From Promethearchaeia archaeon (GTDB lineage Archaea; Asgardarchaeota; Lokiarchaeia; Sigyniarchaeales; SOKP01): 64,000 nucleotides of DNA. The position numbers were made by a program, and so were the translations under genes. The DNA is taken from NCBI GenBank assembly GCA_029856125.1, contig JAHQWJ010000143.1, positions 1-64,000 on the forward strand, written 5' to 3'. The notes below the pieces were generated by a model. It saw only the letters and a list, made by a program, of their open reading frames with translations. It did no database searches and was not told where the DNA came from. Each line of letters begins with the position of its first letter. Position 1 is the stretch's first letter. Shown here piece by piece: positions 1 to 12,557 of this stretch.

Positions 1-2
1 GT

Positions 3-248
3 TTTAACACAATTCAAGAAAATGTAGTTAAAAGGTTAGAATCTATAGATGGAATAGAAAATGTCTTAGAAAATAAAGCAGGAACAGAGTATTCAATATT
101 CACTAATCTAAGTGTCGAGTTTCTTATTGTTAAAATTGAAAACGAAATAAGTAAGGATGCAATCCAAGATTTAAAACAAATTGATTCAAAAATGGAGCAA
201 TTTTTTAGATATAAATTAATTGAGGTGCCCAAAATTGAAGAATTCTAG
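3..248 (+). CDS. 5'-truncated CDS; C-terminal tail resembling the ABC-ATPase C-terminal accessory domain of the downstream gene
   Basis: Frame +3 is open from the window edge to TAG 246-248 (FNTIQENVVKRLESIDGIENVLENKAGTEYSIFTN...MEQFFRYKLIEVPKIEEF*). Pattern resembles the last ~80 aa of 220..1941. Not in the ORF track. Confidence 0.7.
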   Translation, partial: FNTIQENVVKRLESIDGIENVLENKAGTEYSIFTNLSVEFLIVKIENEISKDAIQDLKQIDSKMEQFFRYKLIEVPKIEEF

Positions 249-1941
249 AGAAATCGAGTTGGAACGATTGAGATTAAAAATTTTAGATGCTGTTCGTTTC
301 TCTAAACGTTTCTGGATGACATACAGAGAAAACACATTTGGAATTGCGTCTATTATTAATTTAATCTACAAAAAATCGTTTATTGAAGTTTTGTTCTTTA
401 CTAATAGAGATGTTATTGAAAAGGGAGTGCCTCTATTAAAGATATATACTCCTCTTGAAGATGAAATTGATTTTAGTGAAATTTTATTTGAACCAGATTT
501 TGATGAAGACGGATTGATAAATCCCGTAAAAATTATCCACCATATGAGGAGGCTTATTAGTTCGGAATTCCAAAAGCATCTAAGAATCTTAAATGCTGAA
601 ATTAAGCTAATTGACGAAAAATTTGAGAATTATCAAATTAAAGCTAACCCTTACGATCGAGAGATAAAAATCTCTTACCCTAATTTTACACTGGAACTTA
701 AGATTAATTTAGAAAAATATCCCTTTTTACCAACCTTTTCTTTTTCAAGATCATTATCTAAGATTATCACTGAGAGAGAATTTATCGAGGATGAGATAAT
801 TAAAAATTGGGATAAAGAAAATCCCCCTCACATTTATGAAGTTGTAGAAAAAGTTTGTGATATAGTCTCTGCACGAGTAAAAATAAAAGTGTTAAAAGAA
901 AATTCTCAATATTTAGTTTTAAATCGTCTTACCTTAGGGGATATGATTGATAAATTATCATTCAAAATACACAGAGGAAAATCGATAGGAATAATATTTG
1001 ACGAAAAAAGGTTAACAAAAACTGATCCCAGGCGGGATTTGATGATTTTATTTGACACCATAGCAGGTTCACAATATGATTATTCTGGTTCAATCGAAAT
1101 TTTTGGAAAACCTACTCAGTTGTTAAGTCAATCAGAAAAAGAAAAAATCTTTATTCTCCCTCAGGCATATGATTCAACGATAACAAAAATGAAGATCAAG
1201 AAAGCAATTCGATATCAAATTGATCTACGCGCAATTTACAAGAGAAAAAAAGGGATATTTAATCTAATGCTAAAGAAAGCTGGCTTGGCTCAAAGTTTAG
1301 ATGAAATAATGGAAGAATTCTTAAAGACGGGGTCACATAGAATCAATCGCAAGAATAAATATATAAAAAGAGTTTTAGAATCAACTGGACTACTTAATAA
1401 GAAAAATAAGAGATTCTCAAGGCTGACTCCATTAGAATTTCTTCTTTTTTCAATTACAAGAGCATTAATCCAAACACCTACAATTATCATGTTTTCTATA
1501 CCATTCGGGATTTTAGGTAAACTCGAATATGAAAAGTTTAATTCATATATGGATAAAATCAAAGAAAATTTTCATGTAGTACTAATTTTTCATGGTCCAG
1601 AAGAAATAATATCAAATTGCGACCAAATTTTAACAATTACACAAAACGCTTCTAAAATAGGAACTATTAAAGACTATATTGAAGAATTACCTCAATATGG
1701 TGAAATTTTAAGTATAGAATTGAACAATCCAGATGATTTCTCACTTCATAAACTTAAAGAAATGAAGGAAATTGATGTATTAATTGAAGAAAGAAAAAAT
1801 GAGAAATTTAAAATCTTCATAAAAAATAGTATTACTGACGTAATAATCCAAATCACAGAACTAATGGGGCCAAGCCTTTATAGTTTTAAAAGGACAACCG
1901 CCTCCATCGGTGATTATTTGGAGTTTGTTGAAAATAGATGA
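220..1941 (+). CDS. RWD/UEV(UBC-fold)-like N-terminus fused to a degenerate ABC-type ATPase domain
   Basis: LKINLEKYPFLPTFSF...NWDKENPPHIYEVV resembles RWD/UEV. ABC scaffold LSFKIHRGKSIGII, SGSIEIFG, ITRALIQTPTIIM, CDQILTI is present, but Walker A, signature and Walker B are degenerate. Start uncertain (TTG 220, 235 or 259). Confidence 0.6.
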   Translation: MRCPKLKNSREIELERLRLKILDAVRFSKRFWMTYRENTFGIASIINLIYKKSFIEVLFFTNRDVIEKGVPLLKIYTPLEDEIDFSEILFEPDFDEDGLINPVKIIHHMRRLISSEFQKHLRILNAEIKLIDEKFENYQIKANPYDREIKISYPNFTLELKINLEKYPFLPTFSFSRSLSKIITEREFIEDEIIKNWDKENPPHIYEVVEKVCDIVSARVKIKVLKENSQYLVLNRLTLGDMIDKLSFKIHRGKSIGIIFDEKRLTKTDPRRDLMILFDTIAGSQYDYSGSIEIFGKPTQLLSQSEKEKIFILPQAYDSTITKMKIKKAIRYQIDLRAIYKRKKGIFNLMLKKAGLAQSLDEIMEEFLKTGSHRINRKNKYIKRVLESTGLLNKKNKRFSRLTPLEFLLFSITRALIQTPTIIMFSIPFGILGKLEYEKFNSYMDKIKENFHVVLIFHGPEEIISNCDQILTITQNASKIGTIKDYIEELPQYGEILSIELNNPDDFSLHKLKEMKEIDVLIEERKNEKFKIFIKNSITDVIIQITELMGPSLYSFKRTTASIGDYLEFVENR

Positions 1942-1978
1942 AGTTATTAATTAGATTATAGAAGAGGATATAAAAAAA

Positions 1979-2785
1979 ATGTTAAAAAGTTTATATATCT
2001 TGGATGAACACGGAATTTTATTATATTCCAAAGAGTTCATTAGTGAACAGCAATACGACGACAATATTTTAATAGGATTTTTTACTTCAATAGCTAACTT
2101 TAGCCGGGAAGCTTTAGGAACTGCAGTAAAAAATGTTAACCTCGGAGAAAACAATAAACTTATTCTCACGCCAATTGAGGATGAAGGTCTACTTGGAGCT
2201 GCAATTGTAGGTTCAAATGATAATAACGATTTAGTAACAAAAATAATTAGAGACATCATGCAAGAATTTATTGACTCCTACTCACCAGATTACGATCAAG
2301 AAAAAATCATTAATGAAGAGATGGAGAAAATTATTCAAGATGTTTTAAGAACTAAAATGATTCATTCACCAATAATAAGGATAATGCTTTCTTGGCTAAT
2401 TAACGCTCCTCTTATGATACTCTTAATTTTTGCTAGCATTAATTTAACACTTTTCATCTATATGGCTTTCAATCTCAACCAATATATCACACCCGATCAG
2501 TTGTTTTCGAGATTTTTCCCTGCGTTAATTCTTGTATCTACTGGAAACATTATAATATTATTTCTGTTTCCAAATTTAGTATTCGGCTTTTTATCTCCTA
2601 ATAGAAATATTGCTGTTGTGAATTCTATTATCCACTTAGTTATTACAATTATTTTATTTGCTTACTCATCTGAACCTGCTTTTGGTTATATTATCTTAGG
2701 CCATTTACCTTTAACATTGATATTCTCGCTGTTTTTCTTATTCGTCGGAACAAGATCGTCGTCAAAGAGATTTTTGAAAAAATAG
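1979..2785 (+). CDS. Longin-like domain protein with four C-terminal transmembrane helices
   Basis: N-terminal LYILDEHGILLYSK...ILIGFFTSIANFSREA longin pattern; hydrophobic C-terminal half. Confidence 0.7.
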   Translation: MLKSLYILDEHGILLYSKEFISEQQYDDNILIGFFTSIANFSREALGTAVKNVNLGENNKLILTPIEDEGLLGAAIVGSNDNNDLVTKIIRDIMQEFIDSYSPDYDQEKIINEEMEKIIQDVLRTKMIHSPIIRIMLSWLINAPLMILLIFASINLTLFIYMAFNLNQYITPDQLFSRFFPALILVSTGNIIILFLFPNLVFGFLSPNRNIAVVNSIIHLVITIILFAYSSEPAFGYIILGHLPLTLIFSLFFLFVGTRSSSKRFLKK

Positions 2786-2933: not shown

Positions 2934-4466
2934 TTGAAAGAGGATAATACACAAAAAAAGGGATACAAACCAATTTTAAAAAAATACGAAAAAGAAAAGA
3001 CACTCGTTCTGGAGAGTATTTCAGAACATATCGTCTTTCAAGATAAAAAGCATACTATCTTATGGATAAATAAAGCAGCAGCAGATTCCGTTGAAAAGAC
3101 ACGAGAAGAATTGATAGGAAAGAAATGTTACTCTGTTTGGCAAAAGTCTAATAAATCCTGCATTGATTGCCCAATAGATGCCTCGCTAGAAATAGGTGGC
3201 GCTACATCTGGTGAAATTTCGACTCCAGATGGGAGAGTTTTTATCGTAAGAGGTTTTCCCGTAAGGGATAAAAAAGGAAAAATAATAGGAGCAGTTGAAC
3301 TTACCCAGAATATAACCAAACTCAAACAAACTGAAAAAGATTTAATTTTATCTGAAGAAAGGTATCGGAATCTATTTGAAAGTTCGCCTTATTCTATCGG
3401 CATATTTGATTTAGACGGAACTTTAATTGATTGTAATAAAGCTACGGAAAAGTTTTTGTCCATTCATAATTTAGAAAGGGATTTTATTGGAAAACATTTT
3501 AGAGAATTTTTGGGATATCTTGAGAGAAATAAACCACTTATCCCATTATTCGAAAATACCCTTAATAAGTTAAAGAAAGACGGAGAAACACTAGAATTTC
3601 AATTTCCTGTGAATCGATCAGCGGGAAGTGTGTTGTGGGTTCGCGTTATAGCTTCATTAATAAAAATAGGAAGCGAAGAAAGAATTCAATTCATTGTACA
3701 AGACATTACAGAAAGAAAACAGGCCGAACAAGAATTGAAAACATCGGAAATAAAATATCGAGAAGCGTATAATCGTGTTGATTTTTATAAAGACATTTTT
3801 TCTCACGATATTAACAATATCTTTCAAAATATCCATTCCTCAGTAGAACTAATTGATTTAAATACGGAACAATCGATTAATTTAGAAAAAAACGATGAAT
3901 TGTTGGATATTATTAGAGAACAGATCAAGAGAGGAACTAACCTAGTCTCAAACGTAAGAAGATTATCGGAAATTGAAGGTAAAGACTTAACCTTGCAAAA
4001 GAGTGAAATTATTATAGTTTTAAAAGATGTCATAGACGCTCTTATTAGGGTATATAAAAAAAGAGAGATCAATGTTCAGATTCAGAATGAACCAAAAGAA
4101 GCATATGTCAAGGCAAATGAACTTTTACCAGATATATTTGAAAACATATTAATCAACGCTGTAAGACACAATCGTAATTCTCTTGTTGAGATTCTTATCA
4201 AGTTTTCAAGGGTAGTGAAGGAAGAAGGCAACTTTATCAAACTCGAATTTATTGACAACGGAATCGGTATTTTCCCGGAAATGAAAAAAAAAATCTTTCA
4301 GAGAGGACAAGTTGAGAAAAAGGATAAGATTGGGTTAGGACTTGGTTTAACACTTGTTAAAAAGATAGTCGGAACCTATAATGGCCAAATTTGGGTAGAG
4401 GATAAGTTCGCAGGAGATTATAAAAAGGGAAGCAATTTTATCGTCATTTTACCGGAGGAGGTTTAA
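2934..4466 (+). CDS. PAS-PAS sensor histidine kinase
   Basis: Two PAS/PAC units, H-box FSHDINN, N-box ENILINAVRH, G boxes DNGIGI and GLGLGL; SD-like AGGTGA upstream of the TTG. Confidence 0.93.
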   Translation: MKEDNTQKKGYKPILKKYEKEKTLVLESISEHIVFQDKKHTILWINKAAADSVEKTREELIGKKCYSVWQKSNKSCIDCPIDASLEIGGATSGEISTPDGRVFIVRGFPVRDKKGKIIGAVELTQNITKLKQTEKDLILSEERYRNLFESSPYSIGIFDLDGTLIDCNKATEKFLSIHNLERDFIGKHFREFLGYLERNKPLIPLFENTLNKLKKDGETLEFQFPVNRSAGSVLWVRVIASLIKIGSEERIQFIVQDITERKQAEQELKTSEIKYREAYNRVDFYKDIFSHDINNIFQNIHSSVELIDLNTEQSINLEKNDELLDIIREQIKRGTNLVSNVRRLSEIEGKDLTLQKSEIIIVLKDVIDALIRVYKKREINVQIQNEPKEAYVKANELLPDIFENILINAVRHNRNSLVEILIKFSRVVKEEGNFIKLEFIDNGIGIFPEMKKKIFQRGQVEKKDKIGLGLGLTLVKKIVGTYNGQIWVEDKFAGDYKKGSNFIVILPEEV

Positions 4467-4832
4467 CTGGTTTCAATTTTCATCGTGGAAGACGATTTGT
4501 CCCTGCAAAAGTTGTATGAGATGATGATTTCCACATTTGGGTTCAGAGTTGTTGGAAAAGCGAACAACGGAAAGGAAGCAATTGAAATTTATAACGCATT
4601 AAATAAAAAGCCAAATGTGATTTTAATGGATCACCGTATGCCCGTTCAGAATGGGTTAGACACAGCGCTAATTTTGTTAAAACTTAAAAAACCTCCAAAA
4701 ATCATCTTCACGAGTGCAGATATATCAATTAAAAGCCGAGCCTTAGCAATAGGAGGTTTAACATTTTTAGAAAAACCATTTAGTGTAAAGGCCTTACATG
4801 ATGAGATTATGAAAGCATTAGCAAAAAGTTAA
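4467..4832 (+). CDS. Stand-alone response regulator receiver (CheY-like), probable CTG start
   Basis: VSIFIVEDD, ILMDHRMP, FTSA, LEKPF motifs. The first beta strand lies upstream of the tracked GTG (4485); CTG at 4467 follows GGAGGAGG. Confidence 0.88.
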   Translation: MVSIFIVEDDLSLQKLYEMMISTFGFRVVGKANNGKEAIEIYNALNKKPNVILMDHRMPVQNGLDTALILLKLKKPPKIIFTSADISIKSRALAIGGLTFLEKPFSVKALHDEIMKALAKS

Positions 4833-5031: not shown

Positions 5032-6519
5032 ATGAGCTATAAATTACCAGATGAGAAAGATCTTGAGGCTATGATTGGTATTGTAGGCAAGGAGTACGCC
5101 ACCAATAACAAGGCAATTACAGCGTCTTATCTTTCCAAATCTGTAATGGGATTAGAGGCACAAATTCCTGATATCGTCGTACGCCCCAAATACATCGAAG
5201 AGATTCGTAAGATTCTACTTTACTGCTCAGCAGAAAAAATAGCAGTCTCACCGATTTCAGCCGGACTATCTGGCGGCTTTGCGTGTCCAACTATTAAGCC
5301 TGCCGGAGTTATGCTTGATTTAGGTAGAATGAATAGAATTATCGAAGTTGATACCGAGAATCGATATGTCGTAGTCGAACCGGGAGTCACTATTGGAGAG
5401 CTTTGGGCTTACATGCACAAAAATTACCCAGAATGGGCGCCTCCTGTACCGGATGGTGCTCCACCAGCTTCTACCGTAATGGGTGACGCTATTGATAGAG
5501 GATTTTCCCTTTATACTAGTTCTGTTGGTCCACAAGGTGATAACTTTATGTGCGGTGAGATAGTATTTCCAAACGGAGATATTGTACGAACTGGTTCTTG
5601 GGCTCTTCCATTTGCGAAACCGTTCTATAAATACGGATTAGGTCCAGATATTTGGTCCTTTTTAATGGGTTCACAAGGAGCTTTAGGCGTAATGACTAAA
5701 GTCGCAGTTAAAATATATCCACATCCAAAATTTAAGACCGTAGTTGTGTGGGGTATGTCCAATCCTGAGGATATGCAGGATCTAACACTAGAAATTGGAA
5801 AACAAGAATTTGGAATTGCTCACAACACCGTTATGGTTCAAGGTGGGAATTATCCTTTAGTAATGACGCGTTGGCCAAAAGATAAAGTTCCTCACGATTA
5901 TGAATTCTACGAACAGTTAGGAATTAGTAAGTGGTGGATGAATTGGGAGTGCTGGGCACAAACTCAAGAAGAGCTAGATTATGTGGTTAATAGAATCAAT
6001 AAAATGGCTGAAGATTTCAAGAAAAATAGAGCTAAAGACCCTGATAGTATAAAACCTCAGGAACTACATCCCAAACAAATCGCAAGCAGATTGAAAAAAC
6101 CCAATAAGATTGCGGTTCCTTATTCGTTCTGGGAGGCAGGATTTTTATTCATTACATTCTATACCCCATGGAACGAATGCGCCCATTTTGCTGAAATGTA
6201 TACTGCTGCTATGGAGAAATATGGTTTTCCACCAGTTATGTGGATTGCTAGTATTGAGCGTTGTAGGCAAGCAATTTGTATGCCCATCATTTGTTTTGAT
6301 AGCACAAAACAATCAGATATCGAAAAGGTTCAGGATATGAATAGAGAAACAACAGAATACGCGCTTAAACAAGGGTGGCTTAATTACAGACCGGATCCGT
6401 ACATCCATGCCCCTCTTACATATAGTCAAGCAGGGATGTATTGGAAATATTTGAGAATGATGAAAAAGATGTTTGATCCTAATATGATAATGCATCCTGG
6501 GAGGCTTGCTCTTCCATAA
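5032..6519 (+). CDS. FAD-binding oxidoreductase, VAO/PCMH/GlcD superfamily
   Basis: PDIVVRP, LDLGRMNRIIEVD, VEPGVT, GSQGALGVMTK and C-terminal KKMFDPNMIMHPG motifs. Confidence 0.9.
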   Translation: MSYKLPDEKDLEAMIGIVGKEYATNNKAITASYLSKSVMGLEAQIPDIVVRPKYIEEIRKILLYCSAEKIAVSPISAGLSGGFACPTIKPAGVMLDLGRMNRIIEVDTENRYVVVEPGVTIGELWAYMHKNYPEWAPPVPDGAPPASTVMGDAIDRGFSLYTSSVGPQGDNFMCGEIVFPNGDIVRTGSWALPFAKPFYKYGLGPDIWSFLMGSQGALGVMTKVAVKIYPHPKFKTVVVWGMSNPEDMQDLTLEIGKQEFGIAHNTVMVQGGNYPLVMTRWPKDKVPHDYEFYEQLGISKWWMNWECWAQTQEELDYVVNRINKMAEDFKKNRAKDPDSIKPQELHPKQIASRLKKPNKIAVPYSFWEAGFLFITFYTPWNECAHFAEMYTAAMEKYGFPPVMWIASIERCRQAICMPIICFDSTKQSDIEKVQDMNRETTEYALKQGWLNYRPDPYIHAPLTYSQAGMYWKYLRMMKKMFDPNMIMHPGRLALP

Positions 6520-6540: not shown

Positions 6541-7899
6541 ATGGCTAAAACTGGAATGGAAAGATTAAAAGAATTGGAGAAGGAAATCTATAAGTGTATC
6601 CACTGTAAAGCATGTAGGTTTGCTTATTCAGGAGAACCTAGTAGAGAAGGAATAGGGGAATTCACTGGAAAACAAGGTACAGTTCTTTACGAAGGAATGG
6701 TTGACGCATGTCCAGCTGGAATAGAATACGGTTGGGAAGCGTTTTGGAACGCCGGTAAAATTTGGATCGCTCGTTCGATTTTAAGTGGAGATTTAGAATT
6801 TACTGATGAGGTTAGGGATGTTATTATGCCGTGCATTACATGCGGACAATGTTCAGCCCAATGTGAGAATAAAATACCCACAGTAGACATCATCGAATCT
6901 TTAAGAGCAGCACTCGTAGAATCAGGCGTCCCTATGATAGAAAAGCACCAATTAGTTGATCGTATAGTAAAGGAATTAAACAATCCTTACGGAGGAAAGG
7001 CAGATGAACGATTTAAATGGGCAAAGGATGCTGGTTTAGGGAAATATATAAACAACAAAAACGCAAAAGTTGGATATTACGTCGGTTGTACTGCGAGTTA
7101 TCGACAAGTAGAAGTTGCTATCGCTACAGCAAAGATTTTCGAACAATTAGGCATAGACTTTACATTAATCGAAGAGGAAGTGTGTTGTGGAAGTCCCTTC
7201 TTTAGAATCGGCGCCGTAGATACTGCCCAAATGTTAATGAGGAAAAATCTCGAGGCTTTTAAGAATTTAGATACGGTTTATTTCTCTTGTGCAGGTTGTT
7301 ATCGAACAATAACGATTGATTATCCAAAGTGGATGGCAGAAGACGAGAAACTCCCTTTTAAAACTATGCACGCTTTTGAGTTAGTTTCAAAATTAATCAC
7401 TGAAGGAAAGATCAAATTCAAACCTAATAAAGAACTCAAGGGAAAAATTGTAACCTATCACGATCCTTGCCACACAGGCAGACATTTCGCTCTCGAGATG
7501 GAACAATCCATGATCAAGGAATCTACAAATTTAATGTTTGATATGCGCGAGGTAAACAAAGCGATCGACGAATGGTTTGAGATTCCTCGAGTAATTTTGA
7601 GGAAACTTGAAGAAGACGTCGGGATTAAGTTTACTGAGATGTATCGTATAAAGAACAATTCGATGTGTTGTGGGGCTGGTGGGGGAGTAAGAGCAGGTTA
7701 CCCTGAGTTCTCATTACGAACTGCAAGTCTACGATGCGACGAAGCTAATGCAGTAAAGGCAGATATTCTAACAACTGAATGCCCCTTTTGCTGGAGAAAT
7801 TTAAGCGATGCAAATGAGCAATACAATCATGGCATGCAAGTAATGGGCGTTCTTGAAATGATATCCAAATACAATTTATTAGATATTACATCAAAATAA
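6541..7899 (+). CDS. Fe-S oxidoreductase, HdrD/GlpC/GlcF-like (CCG domains)
   Basis: CIHCKAC...CP and CITCGQCSAQC ferredoxin motifs; GC...CCG...CAGC and HDPCH...CCGAGGG...ECPFC. Confidence 0.9.
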   Translation: MAKTGMERLKELEKEIYKCIHCKACRFAYSGEPSREGIGEFTGKQGTVLYEGMVDACPAGIEYGWEAFWNAGKIWIARSILSGDLEFTDEVRDVIMPCITCGQCSAQCENKIPTVDIIESLRAALVESGVPMIEKHQLVDRIVKELNNPYGGKADERFKWAKDAGLGKYINNKNAKVGYYVGCTASYRQVEVAIATAKIFEQLGIDFTLIEEEVCCGSPFFRIGAVDTAQMLMRKNLEAFKNLDTVYFSCAGCYRTITIDYPKWMAEDEKLPFKTMHAFELVSKLITEGKIKFKPNKELKGKIVTYHDPCHTGRHFALEMEQSMIKESTNLMFDMREVNKAIDEWFEIPRVILRKLEEDVGIKFTEMYRIKNNSMCCGAGGGVRAGYPEFSLRTASLRCDEANAVKADILTTECPFCWRNLSDANEQYNHGMQVMGVLEMISKYNLLDITSK

Positions 7900-8153: not shown

Positions 8154-11100
8154 TTGACAAATGTAGAGAACAAGACAGCATATCCGTACATTACGGAATT
8201 CAAAAAAGAGCCTTTTAAATCTTTTGTTTTAACAAATAGAAAGGATATTGGCAACTTTTACTTAAGTAATTACAACAAAGTCTTAGAATTATATCAAAAT
8301 TATAATGTAAACTTAATTAAAGAATCGTCTTTAAATTTAGAGGATCTTTTTTGGTTTCTCCTTCTGAGAAAGTATATCAAACAAAAAGTGGATGAACACA
8401 GTGAAATTTTCTTAGAATTTGTAAAAAATTGTGAAGTTGAGATAATTGAAAAAGATCAATTGGGGTTTAAAGCATCGCCTTATTCAGTAAAAGCACCTGA
8501 TATTTGGTCAACATACTATGCTCTAGCAAGTTTAGAATTATTAGGGGTACTCCAACAATATTTAGCTTCTAAAGGAAAAGATATAATTGTTGAAAAAATT
8601 AAGAACTTTATTTACGATCATAAAAGAAATAATGGATTCTTACATTGTCTTGACAAACAATGCGAAATATGTAATCAAGGACCTTTGGGCGAGAATTTTT
8701 ACTATGTAGTTGAAAGTCTAACGGTTATCGGTGTCGATGTAAGGGTTTTCAAAGAGCAATTCCGACAATATTTAAGAGAAAGAAAAAAAGATACATCATC
8801 AATTTTTAAACTCCTCAGTCTAAAATTCTTTGATTTGGATTTAGACGTAAAAGATAAGGAAATTCAGCATTTTTATCAATTTCAACAACCAAATGGAGGT
8901 TTTGTCATAAATTCAATTGGAGGAGATATTGAATCTACATTCTGGTGCGTAAATCTTCTCGATATATACTCGTGGCTTATAGATTACAACCCAGCAAGAA
9001 TTTATTCTTTTATCGCAGAAAAATTAGACTCATTATTGAAAGATAAAGAAGACTGGAACTTAATCGCGTTAATAAATGTCACTAAACTGGTAATTTTGTT
9101 ATCTATTATTTGGAATCGTTTTATCGAAGAAATCGAGAGAGTTGTGTTTAAGCGGTTAGAAACATATAATTTTATCGATTTAAACCAGATAAAAACTACC
9201 TTTGGCTTAAGCTATGGAGTAGAAGAGATTGTACTGTATATTAACCTCAATTATATGTTTATTTTGAAGAATATCGATATTTCATCTGAATTTAATGATT
9301 ACCTGCTAAATTTAAGTCAGGACAAAAAGAAAATTATCCAAGAAGTCTACGACCAGCTAAGTAATAATAGCATAATTTCACTTTCAGATATTTACAAAAA
9401 ATATAAAAGGTCCTCCAAACAGGAACCCGTGAAACTAAAAGAAGATATCTTTCCGATCATCTATGACTTAATAAGCAACCATTTTTTTGAAGGAGAGATT
9501 AGATCAAAAAAGGCTTATTTATTCAAAACAAAATTTTACTTTTGTTTAGATGTACTGTACAAAAATATAATTATTTCCGATAAGGAAATTAACAGCGAAA
9601 GACTTTTTGAAGAAAAAGCTAAACTGAAGGAAGTTAAAAATGATATTTACAATATGACTTTGAAGCTTAAGAACACTATTCCTCAAATTAAAGAAGAAAT
9701 AGAATCTTATATTATGATAGACGAAGTCGATTTCGCTAAAGAAAGGTTGAAGTTTGTATTGCGAGATTCATTAATGGAAGCAGATTTTCTTAATAAAAAC
9801 ATTGAAACATCTTTTAATCAAGAGCTTATATATATCAATCTACAAGCTGCTTTAGGTTCAGAAATATCTCAATGGAATAAGTCTTATTCTTTATTGCAAA
9901 AGCGTTTAGGTGAATTAAATAATTATCTCCTAGAAAAGATCCAAGAGATGGAAAGTTTAAAAAGATTTAGCATTATTTTAGACGACTTAGATAATAAAAT
10001 ATACGATATTCAGGATCAGGTAAATCGCGAGATAGATTCTTTTAAAAATTACATTATGGAAGTTCTTGAAAAGGGTTATGACGAAGAAAAATTAAATCTT
10101 ATCATAAATGCGTTTAATAAAATAGCTCAGGTCGTAAGCAAATACGATTCAGTTATTTACAAAGTTTCACATCAGATTACAACAAAAGAGAAAAAGATCG
10201 CAAGGAACCATAAGAAAATAATACATAAATGGGTTAATTTTAAAGAAAACTTTGATTTGATTTTTGCTGATTACACTAATGGTTTTCAGTTTTTCAACGA
10301 TTTAAATAAACAGATAGGAAATGTTAGGGATAATATTCAAGAAGGAATTCTTCAAATTAAAGAGGAAGTTAAAAATATAGCAACTCAAAATCAATACCAA
10401 GACGCATTTAAGATTATTAAGAAGGAAGCGGATAATTTACTAAAAGAAAAAACAAATGAAATTCAAAGCTTAAAAGCTATGGTTAAAAAGAACACTTCTT
10501 TTAAACAAAAACTATTTCCGCTTTATAAATATATAAATGAAAAGCTCGACAGTTTGGAAGAAAATATCATTGAGTTCATAGCCGAACAGGAGCAATTTTT
10601 AAAAGAAAAGGTTATAGAAGAAAGAAACAGGGCAGGTGTGGAGGATTTTGATAGTTTCGTTTCTGATACTATCCAAAATTTTAAGGTTAAGTTAGAATAT
10701 TACAGGATAAACATTGATCAAACCAAAGTAAATAAAATCCCAAATGTTATTAGTGGTTTTGATAAAATTTTAATTGATTTTAACGAAAATAGCAAGATTT
10801 TTTCTAATAAGATAACAAATCTAAAAGCTATTATCCCAGATCTTAATGAAAGTTCGATAAAAATTATACAATGGGAGAAATTTAAAGTAACTTTCACGGA
10901 GGAAGTTGATAAACTAAAGGAAGAATATGTTAATGACATAATTTCTCAAGAGATTATATTAATGAGTGAGGAGGAGCATACAGACACAATTAATATTAAA
11001 AAACTGGCCGATAAGCTTAAACTCAAATGTAGAGTGATAATTCCTAGAATTAAAGACATGATAGAGGTGTCTAAATTGCAAGGCGATTTATTTGAAGATA

Positions 11101-12557
11101 AAAAAGAATTAATAGTGCACACTGAAGCTTATCATAAGAATAGAGAATTGACAAATTTCACAGAAAATAGAATCATCAAACAAACCCAGGAGACAGTAGG
11201 AAAATTACTAGCCCTTTACGATTCGTGCATTAAAAACAAAACTCTTGGAGTAAACTTGTTAGAAATTCAAAATAGAATTAATGATTTAAACGATTATAAG
11301 GAGTCTATTACCAACCAATACAACAAAAAAACAAGAGAGTTAAATGTTGACGAGAAAAGATTAGAGAACATGGAATTAATTAAAAATCTAAAAGCGGTGA
11401 TAAGTAACAATGAGAAAGCGATTTTAAACATAAAAGAAAATTTGGTTCTGTTTAAAGACTTACAAATATTCATAATTGATTTACTAGATACAGTAAAAAT
11501 CGAATTTGAGAATCAATTAACTAAAACTTTCGATGATATAGTGAGAGCTGACTCTCATATTAAGATGAATGAAATTCTTGAAAGCAGAAAGGAGATTGTT
11601 AGAATTGGACTAAGGCAAGTTGATGAAAAACTCGAAAATAAATTGAAAGCGACTATTAGTTTGTCTTATGAAACAAGGAAGTTTGAGATTGAAATGAGAG
11701 AATTTTATGTCTCTCATAAGAATGAAATTAAAGCAATGGTAGAAGAGAAAGTTCAAGCAATAAATGATAAAATAAAATCTATAAGGTTTGAGACAGATCG
11801 AGGTAAATTAGTACTAACGATTACCAATAATAATATCCATTTAAGCCAATTATTAGGAACTTTACAAGCTAGGGTTGAAGATTATATTGAAACAGAGCAA
11901 TTTAAGAGAGCTTATCTAAAAGTAAATAAAAAGCATAAGTATATCGAGCAAGAGATTAAGAATACAAATAGAAGAATTAAAGATATGTATAAGGAATTTA
12001 ATAGAAACTCTAATGATTTTGAAACTAAAAATAAGCATATCATTGACGATTTTGACCGAATCGTATTAGAGTTTAATGAAATTCTAAGAGAGAAAGTTAA
12101 GACATTAGAGGAATTAATTGTGAAATCATACGTGGAATTTGCAATCAAAGCTGTGGCAAACGAGTTCCTTACCTTAAGTTTTTTGCAGAATGAATTAAAG
12201 ATAAAGAAACCCCTAATTCAAAAACACCTGATTTCTCTGATTAGTTCTGGGAAATTGAAAGGAAAATACGATCCTCAAATTGGTTTATATTACGAAAATC
12301 CAGAAGTTCTGAGTATGCTTGATGATAAAGAATTAGAAGTTATTAAGAAAATGAATTTCCGCGTGTATATGTTTATGAGGCGTTTAAAGAATTTTACAAG
12401 CCAATATGGCTCAATAATTGCGTTCTTTGCATCACTAATCACGATCTCATATTACATTTTCCAAATTAGTCCGGTTACTATAATAATCCCTATTATATTG
12501 ACCTTAGTAGTTCTAGGATACCTTCTTTTCAAAAAAAAGCAAGACGAAAAGTTTTGA
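8154..12557 (+). CDS. 1467-aa protein: prenyltransferase/squalene-cyclase-type repeats, winged-helix/PCI-like domains, long coiled coils, C-terminal TM anchor
   Basis: DIWSTYYALASLELLG, QQPNGGF, DIESTFWCV repeats; PCI-like LQNELKIKKPLIQKHLISLISSGKLKGKYD; heptad-rich middle; two hydrophobic helices at the C-terminus. Confidence 0.6.
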   Translation: MTNVENKTAYPYITEFKKEPFKSFVLTNRKDIGNFYLSNYNKVLELYQNYNVNLIKESSLNLEDLFWFLLLRKYIKQKVDEHSEIFLEFVKNCEVEIIEKDQLGFKASPYSVKAPDIWSTYYALASLELLGVLQQYLASKGKDIIVEKIKNFIYDHKRNNGFLHCLDKQCEICNQGPLGENFYYVVESLTVIGVDVRVFKEQFRQYLRERKKDTSSIFKLLSLKFFDLDLDVKDKEIQHFYQFQQPNGGFVINSIGGDIESTFWCVNLLDIYSWLIDYNPARIYSFIAEKLDSLLKDKEDWNLIALINVTKLVILLSIIWNRFIEEIERVVFKRLETYNFIDLNQIKTTFGLSYGVEEIVLYINLNYMFILKNIDISSEFNDYLLNLSQDKKKIIQEVYDQLSNNSIISLSDIYKKYKRSSKQEPVKLKEDIFPIIYDLISNHFFEGEIRSKKAYLFKTKFYFCLDVLYKNIIISDKEINSERLFEEKAKLKEVKNDIYNMTLKLKNTIPQIKEEIESYIMIDEVDFAKERLKFVLRDSLMEADFLNKNIETSFNQELIYINLQAALGSEISQWNKSYSLLQKRLGELNNYLLEKIQEMESLKRFSIILDDLDNKIYDIQDQVNREIDSFKNYIMEVLEKGYDEEKLNLIINAFNKIAQVVSKYDSVIYKVSHQITTKEKKIARNHKKIIHKWVNFKENFDLIFADYTNGFQFFNDLNKQIGNVRDNIQEGILQIKEEVKNIATQNQYQDAFKIIKKEADNLLKEKTNEIQSLKAMVKKNTSFKQKLFPLYKYINEKLDSLEENIIEFIAEQEQFLKEKVIEERNRAGVEDFDSFVSDTIQNFKVKLEYYRINIDQTKVNKIPNVISGFDKILIDFNENSKIFSNKITNLKAIIPDLNESSIKIIQWEKFKVTFTEEVDKLKEEYVNDIISQEIILMSEEEHTDTINIKKLADKLKLKCRVIIPRIKDMIEVSKLQGDLFEDKKELIVHTEAYHKNRELTNFTENRIIKQTQETVGKLLALYDSCIKNKTLGVNLLEIQNRINDLNDYKESITNQYNKKTRELNVDEKRLENMELIKNLKAVISNNEKAILNIKENLVLFKDLQIFIIDLLDTVKIEFENQLTKTFDDIVRADSHIKMNEILESRKEIVRIGLRQVDEKLENKLKATISLSYETRKFEIEMREFYVSHKNEIKAMVEEKVQAINDKIKSIRFETDRGKLVLTITNNNIHLSQLLGTLQARVEDYIETEQFKRAYLKVNKKHKYIEQEIKNTNRRIKDMYKEFNRNSNDFETKNKHIIDDFDRIVLEFNEILREKVKTLEELIVKSYVEFAIKAVANEFLTLSFLQNELKIKKPLIQKHLISLISSGKLKGKYDPQIGLYYENPEVLSMLDDKELEVIKKMNFRVYMFMRRLKNFTSQYGSIIAFFASLITISYYIFQISPVTIIIPIILTLVVLGYLLFKKKQDEKF

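Follow-up and report, generated by a model that had tools for sequence, protein, structure and literature searches.

The window analysed here comprises 64,000 nucleotides (nt), positions 1-64,000 of the forward strand of contig JAHQWJ010000143.1 (contig C143 below) from a Promethearchaeia archaeon. Its first 2785 positions are the distal half of a six-gene operon for an ATP-binding cassette (ABC) exporter of the ABC-2 (type V) kind, found in one Lokiarchaeia-type Asgard family. Numbered 1 to 6 along the operon, the genes encode a permease, a second permease, an intact ATPase, a protein of ~1060 amino acids (aa) and two proteins of 568 and 268 aa. The last two are our main subject. The gene 5 protein joins two UBC-like domains to an ABC ATPase fold that has lost its motifs, and the gene 6 protein joins a longin domain to four transmembrane (TM) helices. 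The window's own (host) genome is labelled G000, and L and P labels denote related loci and proteins.

An exporter operon divided over two contigs

Three open reading frames (ORFs) are present on the + strand of this region (Table 1). An earlier, preliminary description of the stretch had taken them for a tightly linked three-gene unit. The linkage is borne out, but the three are in fact genes 4 to 6 of six, as the upstream contig C142 and the related loci make clear. The end of C142 shares a 127-nt overlap with the start of the window, so that the truncated gene 4 ORF continues on that contig, and joining the two reveals four upstream genes (genes 1-4). Genes 1 and 2 encode ABC-2 permeases of 383 and 391 aa (Pfam ABC2_membrane_3, expectation value (E) 5e-20 and 4e-24); in both, a loop of ~150 residues separates the first TM helix from the other five. 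Gene 3 encodes an intact ABC ATPase of 344 aa, and a second intact ATPase resides in gene 4. This complement of an ABC-2 exporter operon, two permeases and two intact ATPases upstream of gene 5, is kept at three related loci (L004, L005, L065).

The gene 4 protein measures at least 999 aa and combines a prenyltransferase-like alpha/alpha toroid (Pfam Prenyltrans, E 2.8e-32), one TM helix (a single hydrophobic segment, 631-661), an ABC ATPase (Pfam ABC_tran, E 3.7e-25) with the intact motifs GESGAGKST, LSGGQKRR and LILDEPTSGLD, and a C-terminal regulatory domain. Its nucleotide-binding domain (NBD) is 34% identical to that of gene 3. The gene 4 frame is open for 64 codons ahead of the first ATG, GTG or TTG (L003:8916-9121, on C142 upstream of the window), and a signal anchor is encoded there (KKRLKTLIILLILAG...). 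An ATA codon that overlaps the gene 3 stop is preceded, at a distance of 5 nt, by a strong GGAGGTGA. Given this arrangement in an open frame and homologues of 1063-1075 aa, a non-canonical start is indicated; with the signal anchor, the protein would reach the length of these homologues. The preliminary description had expected a paralogue of the gene 5 protein with a similar C-terminal domain in the truncated gene and had called for its retrieval and an inspection of its Walker motifs. The retrieved gene is such a paralogue, as detailed below, and its ATPase is intact within a fusion of signal anchor, toroid and TM helix.

The gene 5 frame is open from 220 to 1941, with a TGA stop at 1939-1941. 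Because its database homologues begin with MKNSRE, which corresponds to a TTG at 235 with GAGGTG 8 nt upstream, the protein has 568 aa; the ORF reported earlier is real, its length of 573 aa is not. The gene 5 start overlaps the gene 4 stop by 14 nt. The ATG of gene 6 at 1979 lies 37 nt past the gene 5 TGA and has GAGG upstream. A scan for terminator-like sites gave no call where gene 4 overlaps gene 5 or in the 37 nt that separate genes 5 and 6. Its four calls fall within gene 5 (809-825, two around 1024-1039, and 1866-1878), the nearest of them (1866-1878) ~60 nt ahead of the gene 5 stop; with 2.1 sites expected from shuffled sequence, four is no clear excess.

The gene 5 protein and the relatives of its domains

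Residues 223-568 of the gene 5 protein match ABC ATPases with a C-terminal regulatory domain (Foldseek against the PDB, 4yer, E 6.5e-13), and the RecA-like and helical subdomains of an NBD fold are both present. The AlphaFold2 (AF2) model has a mean predicted local distance difference test score (pLDDT) of 85, and no hydrophobic segment is found in the protein. Sequence models cover the distal half only and score far short of their cut-offs (Pfam ABC_tran 13.2 bits, the cut-off being 25; best NCBIfam E 8e-7). Among active paralogues the gene 4 ATPase comes nearest, its C-terminal domain included (23% identity over 240 aa, E 9e-9, versus E 2.6 for the gene 3 ATPase), and the C-terminal domain of gene 5 is collinear with those of gene 4, TM_1403 and NosF. 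On this scaffold, Walker A, signature and Walker B have degenerated, in line with the preliminary description. The positions of the last two come from the BLAST alignment to the gene 4 ATPase (LTPLE/LSGGQ and IIMFSIP/LILDEP), that of Walker A from a short match to the gene 3 ATPase ending just before the P-loop together with the Foldseek and VIA fold matches over 223-568. Gene 5 is a duplicate of the neighbouring gene 4 ATPase that has kept the NBD fold and the C-terminal domain and has lost all nucleotide-handling motifs.

The loss of the three motifs is common to 26 divergent members of the gene 5 family, down to 20% identity: none has a P-loop (Walker A, GxxGxGK[ST]), and the LSGGQ signature and the Walker B hhhhDE are lost family-wide. 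The ratio of nonsynonymous to synonymous substitution rates (dN/dS), which comes from two pairs only since most pairs are saturated at synonymous sites, is 0.17-0.18 overall; the dead NBD has 0.16-0.19 and UBC-like domain 1 has 0.06-0.10. Gene 5 is under purifying selection, strongest in that domain, and the conserved loss of motifs is not simple decay. One distant relative, P0274 (L064:2614-4227), is half-degenerate in signature and Walker B (AAGEKRR...IVEPE) and looks like an intermediate in motif loss. Other variants of the pseudo-ATPase were observed, i.e., a Lys/Pro-rich repeat tail of 200 residues at the N-terminus of P0262 and an insert of ~80 residues in domain 2 of P0245. P0290 (628 aa) has an intact ABC ATPase, the C-terminal ERKNEKF motif of gene 5 and ~300 N-terminal residues with winged-helix-looking repeats, which makes it another N-terminally decorated member of the same ATPase subfamily.

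Domains of the UBC/RWD fold are built from a helix, four strands in an antiparallel sheet with a YPxxP turn before strand 4, and C-terminal helices. The order of secondary structure in both N-terminal domains of the AF2 model fits this fold. Domain 1 has a helix at 4-23 and strands at 27-31, 34-42, 47-54 and 68-71; after the long helix 97-129, domain 2 follows with strands at 131-135, 138-147, 152-158 and 167-170 and helices up to 215. The YPxxP strand-turn and the W...PxI helix pointed out earlier correspond to YPFLP, between strands 3 and 4 of domain 2, and to NW..PPHI. In distant members a YPxxP occurs after strand 3 of domain 1. Neither an HPN motif nor a conserved Cys, as expected of a catalytic E2, is found in residues 1-218 across the family.

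Homology to the UBC superfamily was reached through a genome search with the gene 5 N-terminal profile, which yielded two further families that carry domain 2. One is represented by P0310, a protein with four UBC-like domains and a Cys-rich RING/PHD-like finger at the C-terminus. By hhalign, domain 2 matches P0310 domain II with 99.2% probability (E 8e-20), domain III with 97.3% (E 1.9e-11), domain I with 93.5% (E 2.3e-7) and domain IV with 69% (E 4.4e-5). Domain 1 matches P0310 domain I (66.8%, E 5.3e-5) in an FW..G..E register that aligns its invariant W27, G36 and E51. The P0310 domains in turn are tied to named families: all 10 members tested have a domain I above the Pfam cut-off of UQ_con and a domain IV above that of RWD, and a profile built from Asgard E2 enzymes is matched by domain I (95.5%, E 1.4e-8). 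Domain 2 itself compares with the Asgard E2 profile at P 0.0056, a score that none of 343 column shuffles reached. The second family, with a JAMM/MPN domain, matches the gene 5 N-terminus at 97.4% (E 1.3e-11).

Direct sequence searches of the N-terminus returned nothing significant (Pfam on 30 members; PDB profile searches), with an enrichment of UBC-type entries among the weak matches only. Five of the seven weak PDB matches are UEV or BRE, the language-model nearest named clusters are BRE and UFC1 for two members, each ~25% identical to the window protein, and single members show weak Pfam matches to RWD and FANCL_d1. Fold searches with the whole 568-residue model returned ABC ATPases only (Foldseek against the PDB, VIA with 48,161 chains, Foldseek against viral models), the lists being filled by the NBD. 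Two giant-virus E2 rows among the viral models (E 4e-3 and 7.5e-3; probability 0.33-0.57; root-mean-square deviation >24 A) were too weak to use. Pfam RWD, UFC1 and UEV have no match in the host genome, and likewise none in control genomes, which gives this absence little weight. An internal duplication linking domains 1 and 2 is not supported, as hhalign of the two against each other gave only P 0.035. Taken together, profile homology argues with high confidence that domain 2 is a non-catalytic member of the UBC superfamily and with moderate confidence that domain 1 is another, which agrees with the tandem UEV/RWD-type module that had been suggested from its motifs.

The two further families reuse the same domain type with other partners. 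Members of the JAMM/MPN family (220 aa) consist of a domain-2-like N-terminus and a JAMM/MPN domain, with a Prok-JAB match in 13 of 21 members. Relatives have two paralogues, one with an intact HSHPSGxxxPSxxD and one degenerate (FISRPSG); the host genome has the degenerate copy only, between hypE and hypD. The pair resembles the MPN+/MPN- pairs of eukaryotic deubiquitinase complexes. The P0310 family (~550-590 aa) occurs in 36 of 61 genomes of the family and was not found in G000. Its arrangement of UBC-like domains followed by a finger is like that of FANCL, and one member passes Pfam BRE. At L067 the P0310 gene adjoins sugar-nucleotide and glycosyltransferase genes. Within this lineage, one UBC-like domain type has thus come to be joined to an ABC, a JAMM/MPN or a RING-like partner.

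Table 1. Location of the genes, domains and motifs discussed in the text (positions in the window unless another contig or locus is named).
Feature	Position	Strand	Basis or remark
Gene 4, 3' end (C-terminal regulatory domain)	1..248	+	ORF open at 5' end, stop TAG 246-248
Gene 4, remainder	L003 (C142), from ~8930 to contig end		joined via 127-nt overlap
Gene 5, 568-aa soluble protein: two UBC-like domains, pseudo-NBD, C-terminal domain	235..1941	+	homologue starts, AF2 model
UBC-like domain 1, residues 1-96	235..522	+	most conserved part; invariant W27, G36, E51
Long helix and UBC-like domain 2, residues 97-218	523..888	+	invariant P163, W192
YPFLP, residues 162-166	718-732	+	
NW..PPHI, residues 191-200	805-834	+	
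Pseudo-NBD, residues 219-485	889..1689	+	fold matches, alignment to gene 4 ATPase
Degenerate Walker A GIIFDEKRLT, residues 252-261	988-1017	+	
Degenerate signature LTPLE (for LSGGQ), residues 397-401	1423-1437	+	
Degenerate Walker B IIMFSIP (for hhhhDE), residues 417-423	1483-1503	+	
H-loop FHGP	1588-1599	+	kept in close relatives only
C-terminal regulatory-type domain, residues 486-568	1690..1938	+	invariant E518, E523 of IEERKNEK motif
Gene 6, 268-aa protein: longin domain, four TM helices, basic C-terminal tail	1979..2785	+	ATG start, AF2 model
Longin domain of gene 6, residues 1-127	1979-2359	+	AF2 model, Foldseek
JAMM/MPN fusion of the host genome	G000 contig C18, L040:1105-1770	-	relatives L041-L063
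P0310, four UBC-like domains and C-terminal Cys-rich RING/PHD-like finger	L067:7338-9101	-	relatives L069-L098

The longin protein and the spread of the operon

The AF2 model of the gene 6 protein (pLDDT 80) shows the longin order beta-beta-alpha-beta-beta-beta-alpha-alpha in residues 1-127, for which Foldseek returns AP sigma, zeta-COP and TRAPP (E ~1e-4). No family match was obtained against Pfam Sybindin, Sedlin, Longin and Clat_adaptor_s, the best score being 13.3 bits for Sybindin (E 0.087), where the cut-off is 25. Four hydrophobic segments follow (131-166, 175-207, 209-231 and 234-258), so that a TM region of 131-258 precedes the basic tail, and from this topology the longin domain is placed in the cytosol. 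The fusion of a longin domain to four TM helices noticed before is hereby confirmed, and the gene 6 protein is a longin domain held on the cytosolic side by a membrane anchor of four helices. Among longin proteins (AP sigma, mu N-terminus, zeta-COP, TRAPP Bet5/Trs23, VAMP7, Sec22, SR-alpha SRX), it differs by four TM helices directly after the longin domain and by the lack of a SNARE motif, a sequence-family match and a nearby GTPase gene. A predicted complex of residues 1-218 of the gene 5 protein with the longin domain scored 0.01 and was used neither for nor against an interaction. In other Asgard families, ORFs of ~260-310 aa (G029, G034, G050, G064, G073) are similar to gene 6 over its longin domain and its first TM region (E 1e-13 to 1e-18). 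They come without a gene 5 homologue, and membrane-anchored longin proteins may be wider spread than the operon.

The order of the six genes is identical, with overlaps of 4-14 nt, around gene 5 homologues of 54-59% identity (L004-L007). It is found again around a homologue of 23% identity (L065), where a neighbour of 269 aa is homologous to gene 6 (hhalign 99.9%). Gene order, on which the preliminary description had staked its proposal, is thus conserved. At E <= 0.001 the gene 5 protein has 187 homologues, the 120 best listed being 54-88% identical and mostly 565-581 aa long, and the family forms 69 clusters at 50% identity. In a set of 301 Asgard genomes, the gene 5 N-terminal profile has full-length matches in 37 and the gene 5 ORF is intact (~520-600 aa) in 60. 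Gene 6 has strong matches in 37, of which 35 are shared with gene 5 on the same contigs, ~1.74 kb downstream, and the gene 4 ectodomain also occurs in 37, with 36 shared with gene 5. Genes 4, 5 and 6 are inherited together and adjacent to each other in about 35 of the 301 genomes. Almost all operon-bearing genomes belong to the window's own family (f1); one distant family (G087) has a gene 4 homologue without gene 5.

A proposed regulated exporter and its alternatives

We propose, with a probability of roughly 55%, that the exporter encoded by this operon includes the gene 5 protein as a non-catalytic subunit for regulation or scaffolding, equipped with a UEV/RWD platform and with the longin protein as adaptor. 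The permease pair and the two intact ATPases would already make up a complete type V exporter, to which the gene 4 toroid would add an extracytoplasmic partner domain. With its NBD and C-terminal domain the pseudo-ATPase may dock on the active ATPase from which it originated, as other pseudo-enzymes do; there it may either keep the motor switched off, as a non-productive partner, or serve as a bridge. The tandem UEV/RWD module would then be a protein-binding platform on the cytosolic side, available to a cytosolic ligand, and the longin-4TM protein a membrane-side adaptor of the pseudo-ATPase module. The exported substrate is probably hydrophobic, of an isoprenoid type, and would be handed to the extracellular toroid. 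A role as motor subunit would not apply to gene 5, because an NBD without Walker A and signature can complete neither ATP site.

Several points weigh against this proposal. The interaction of the subunits is read from sequence and gene context, the UBC assignment depends on profile homology and the predicted order of secondary structure, and the substrate is a guess from domain type. A gene 4 NBD paired with a motif-less partner makes no complete ATP site, so that a simple role as second NBD is unlikely. Several near-complete genomes of the same genus are without the operon, which makes it accessory and its role perhaps niche-specific. Finally, the distant member P0274 is not part of the six-gene operon; its neighbours are an ABC ATPase transcribed divergently and a fragment that is prenyltransferase-like.

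The same genes can be divided differently. Permeases 1 and 2 with a gene 3 homodimer could form the exporter, and genes 4, 5 and 6 a separate, asymmetric pseudo-transporter through which ATP binding or a signal from the cytosol would reach the extracellular toroid, by a mechanotransduction like that of MacB or FtsEX. The co-inheritance of genes 4, 5 and 6 as a trio, the derivation of gene 5 from the gene 4 rather than the gene 3 NBD, the gene 4/5 and gene 5/6 overlaps and the gene 4 homologue without gene 5 in the distant family all suit this division, as does the sum of two TM helices in gene 4 and four in gene 6, which equals the six of an ABC-2 membrane domain. Yet both composite ATP sites of such a pair would be incomplete, the gene 3 and gene 4 NBDs, at 34% identity, could pair normally, the gene 6 protein has no extracytoplasmic domain, and the permeases and gene 3 accompany the trio in every full locus seen. 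On balance we regard two separate modules as unlikely. That gene 5 is a decaying ATPase duplicate without a function of its own would account for the loss of all catalytic motifs, but here the probability is close to nil: decay is ruled out by the dN/dS values overall and in the dead NBD, the ORF stays intact across the 60 genomes, the listed homologues retain their similarity and some invariant residues, and the N-terminal module has been gained rather than lost.

A further alternative is the one first put forward, in which genes 5 and 6, together with gene 4, form a ubiquitin-linked complex for membrane trafficking or signalling that has no part in transport; the UEV/RWD module would bind a ubiquitin-like protein and the longin domain recruit a small GTPase. 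Both N-terminal domains are indeed UBC-superfamily homologues, and in the same lineage the domain 2 type also occurs in fusions with JAMM/MPN isopeptidase domains and with a RING-like finger. Ubiquitin-like proteins are encoded in the host genome at C56:9370-9561 and C65:17406-17582, two E2 enzymes are present as well, and the longin fold usually partners small GTPases. However, the conserved neighbourhood of the operon contains no gene for ubiquitin, E1, E2, E3, JAMM or a small GTPase, the genes are linked to and co-inherited with strictly those of permeases and ATPases, and RWD/UEV domains also serve as plain protein-protein modules without ubiquitin, e.g., in kinetochore RWD proteins. The ubiquitin link would rest on domain homology only, and we hold such a complex to be rather improbable. 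Since the same operon has two ABC-2 permeases and two intact ATPases immediately upstream, the evidence speaks for a decorated transporter, and the view of a complex rather than an ordinary transporter is not supported. An intermediate and decidedly speculative version, to which we assign a low probability, keeps the exporter and lets the pseudo-ATPase and the longin-4TM protein be a switch that answers ubiquitin-like proteins or small GTPases and gates the export of isoprenoid lipids or glycolipids. If true, it would provide an archaeal case of a membrane transporter under the control of trafficking and ubiquitin domains of eukaryote type, and with it a working model for the first wiring of such domains to membranes before eukaryogenesis.

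Known systems offer partial parallels to the proposed exporter subunit. Closest to the gene 5 NBD are ABC-2 (type V) ATPases with a C-terminal regulatory domain, such as TM_1403 (4yer), NosF of NosDFY and ABCA NBD-R. Compared to these, gene 5 lacks Walker A, signature, Walker B and D-loop, has an N-terminal extension of 218 residues and is a third NBD-like protein beside two intact ones in its operon. Its two consecutive non-catalytic UBC-like domains recall BRE/BRCC45 (BRISC, BRCA1-A) and the ELF-DRWD of FANCL. No significant direct sequence match to BRE or FANCL exists, the operon has neither a RING nor an MPN partner, and the module is fused to an ABC fold, a UEV/RWD fusion for which we found no example in the literature searched. 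A dead duplicate kept under selection beside its active paralogue is also seen in Mms2-Ubc13, in MPN-/MPN+ pairs and in the degenerate NBDs of heterodimeric ABC exporters. Whereas known degenerate ABC sites have lost the motifs of one composite site, the whole gene 5 NBD is motif-less and both composite sites would be defective.

Asgard genomes are rich in eukaryote-signature domains, among them longin, roadblock, UEV, RWD and E2, and the cellular roles of these domains are mostly obscure because informative gene contexts are rare. Here two eukaryote-type domains have a fixed place beside a well-understood prokaryotic machine, in an operon that is strictly conserved and translationally coupled, and a fully motif-less ABC NBD maintained under selection adds a new class of pseudo-enzymes. 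The reach of these observations is limited by the operon being confined almost wholly to one family-level lineage and dispensable within a genus. The exporter type itself is known; what is new is an ABC-2 exporter with two accessory subunits without precedent in the literature searched. No description of the gene 5 architecture was found in that literature, where most subscription papers lay outside the scope. This architecture fits the pattern described in a preprint by Liu et al., according to which most multidomain Asgard signature proteins have lineage-specific architectures.

Directly past the operon, the window encodes a cytosolic PAS-PAS histidine kinase (2934-4466) and then a stand-alone receiver domain (4485-4832). 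The receiver gene occurs at the same position in L006 and L007, not in L004, and a regulatory link may exist. Further downstream lie genes for FAD_binding_4 (5032-6519), Fer4/CCG (6541-7899) and a 1467-aa prenyltransferase-like protein (8154-12557). These three also neighbour the operon in L004-L007, and the functional neighbourhood may exceed six genes.

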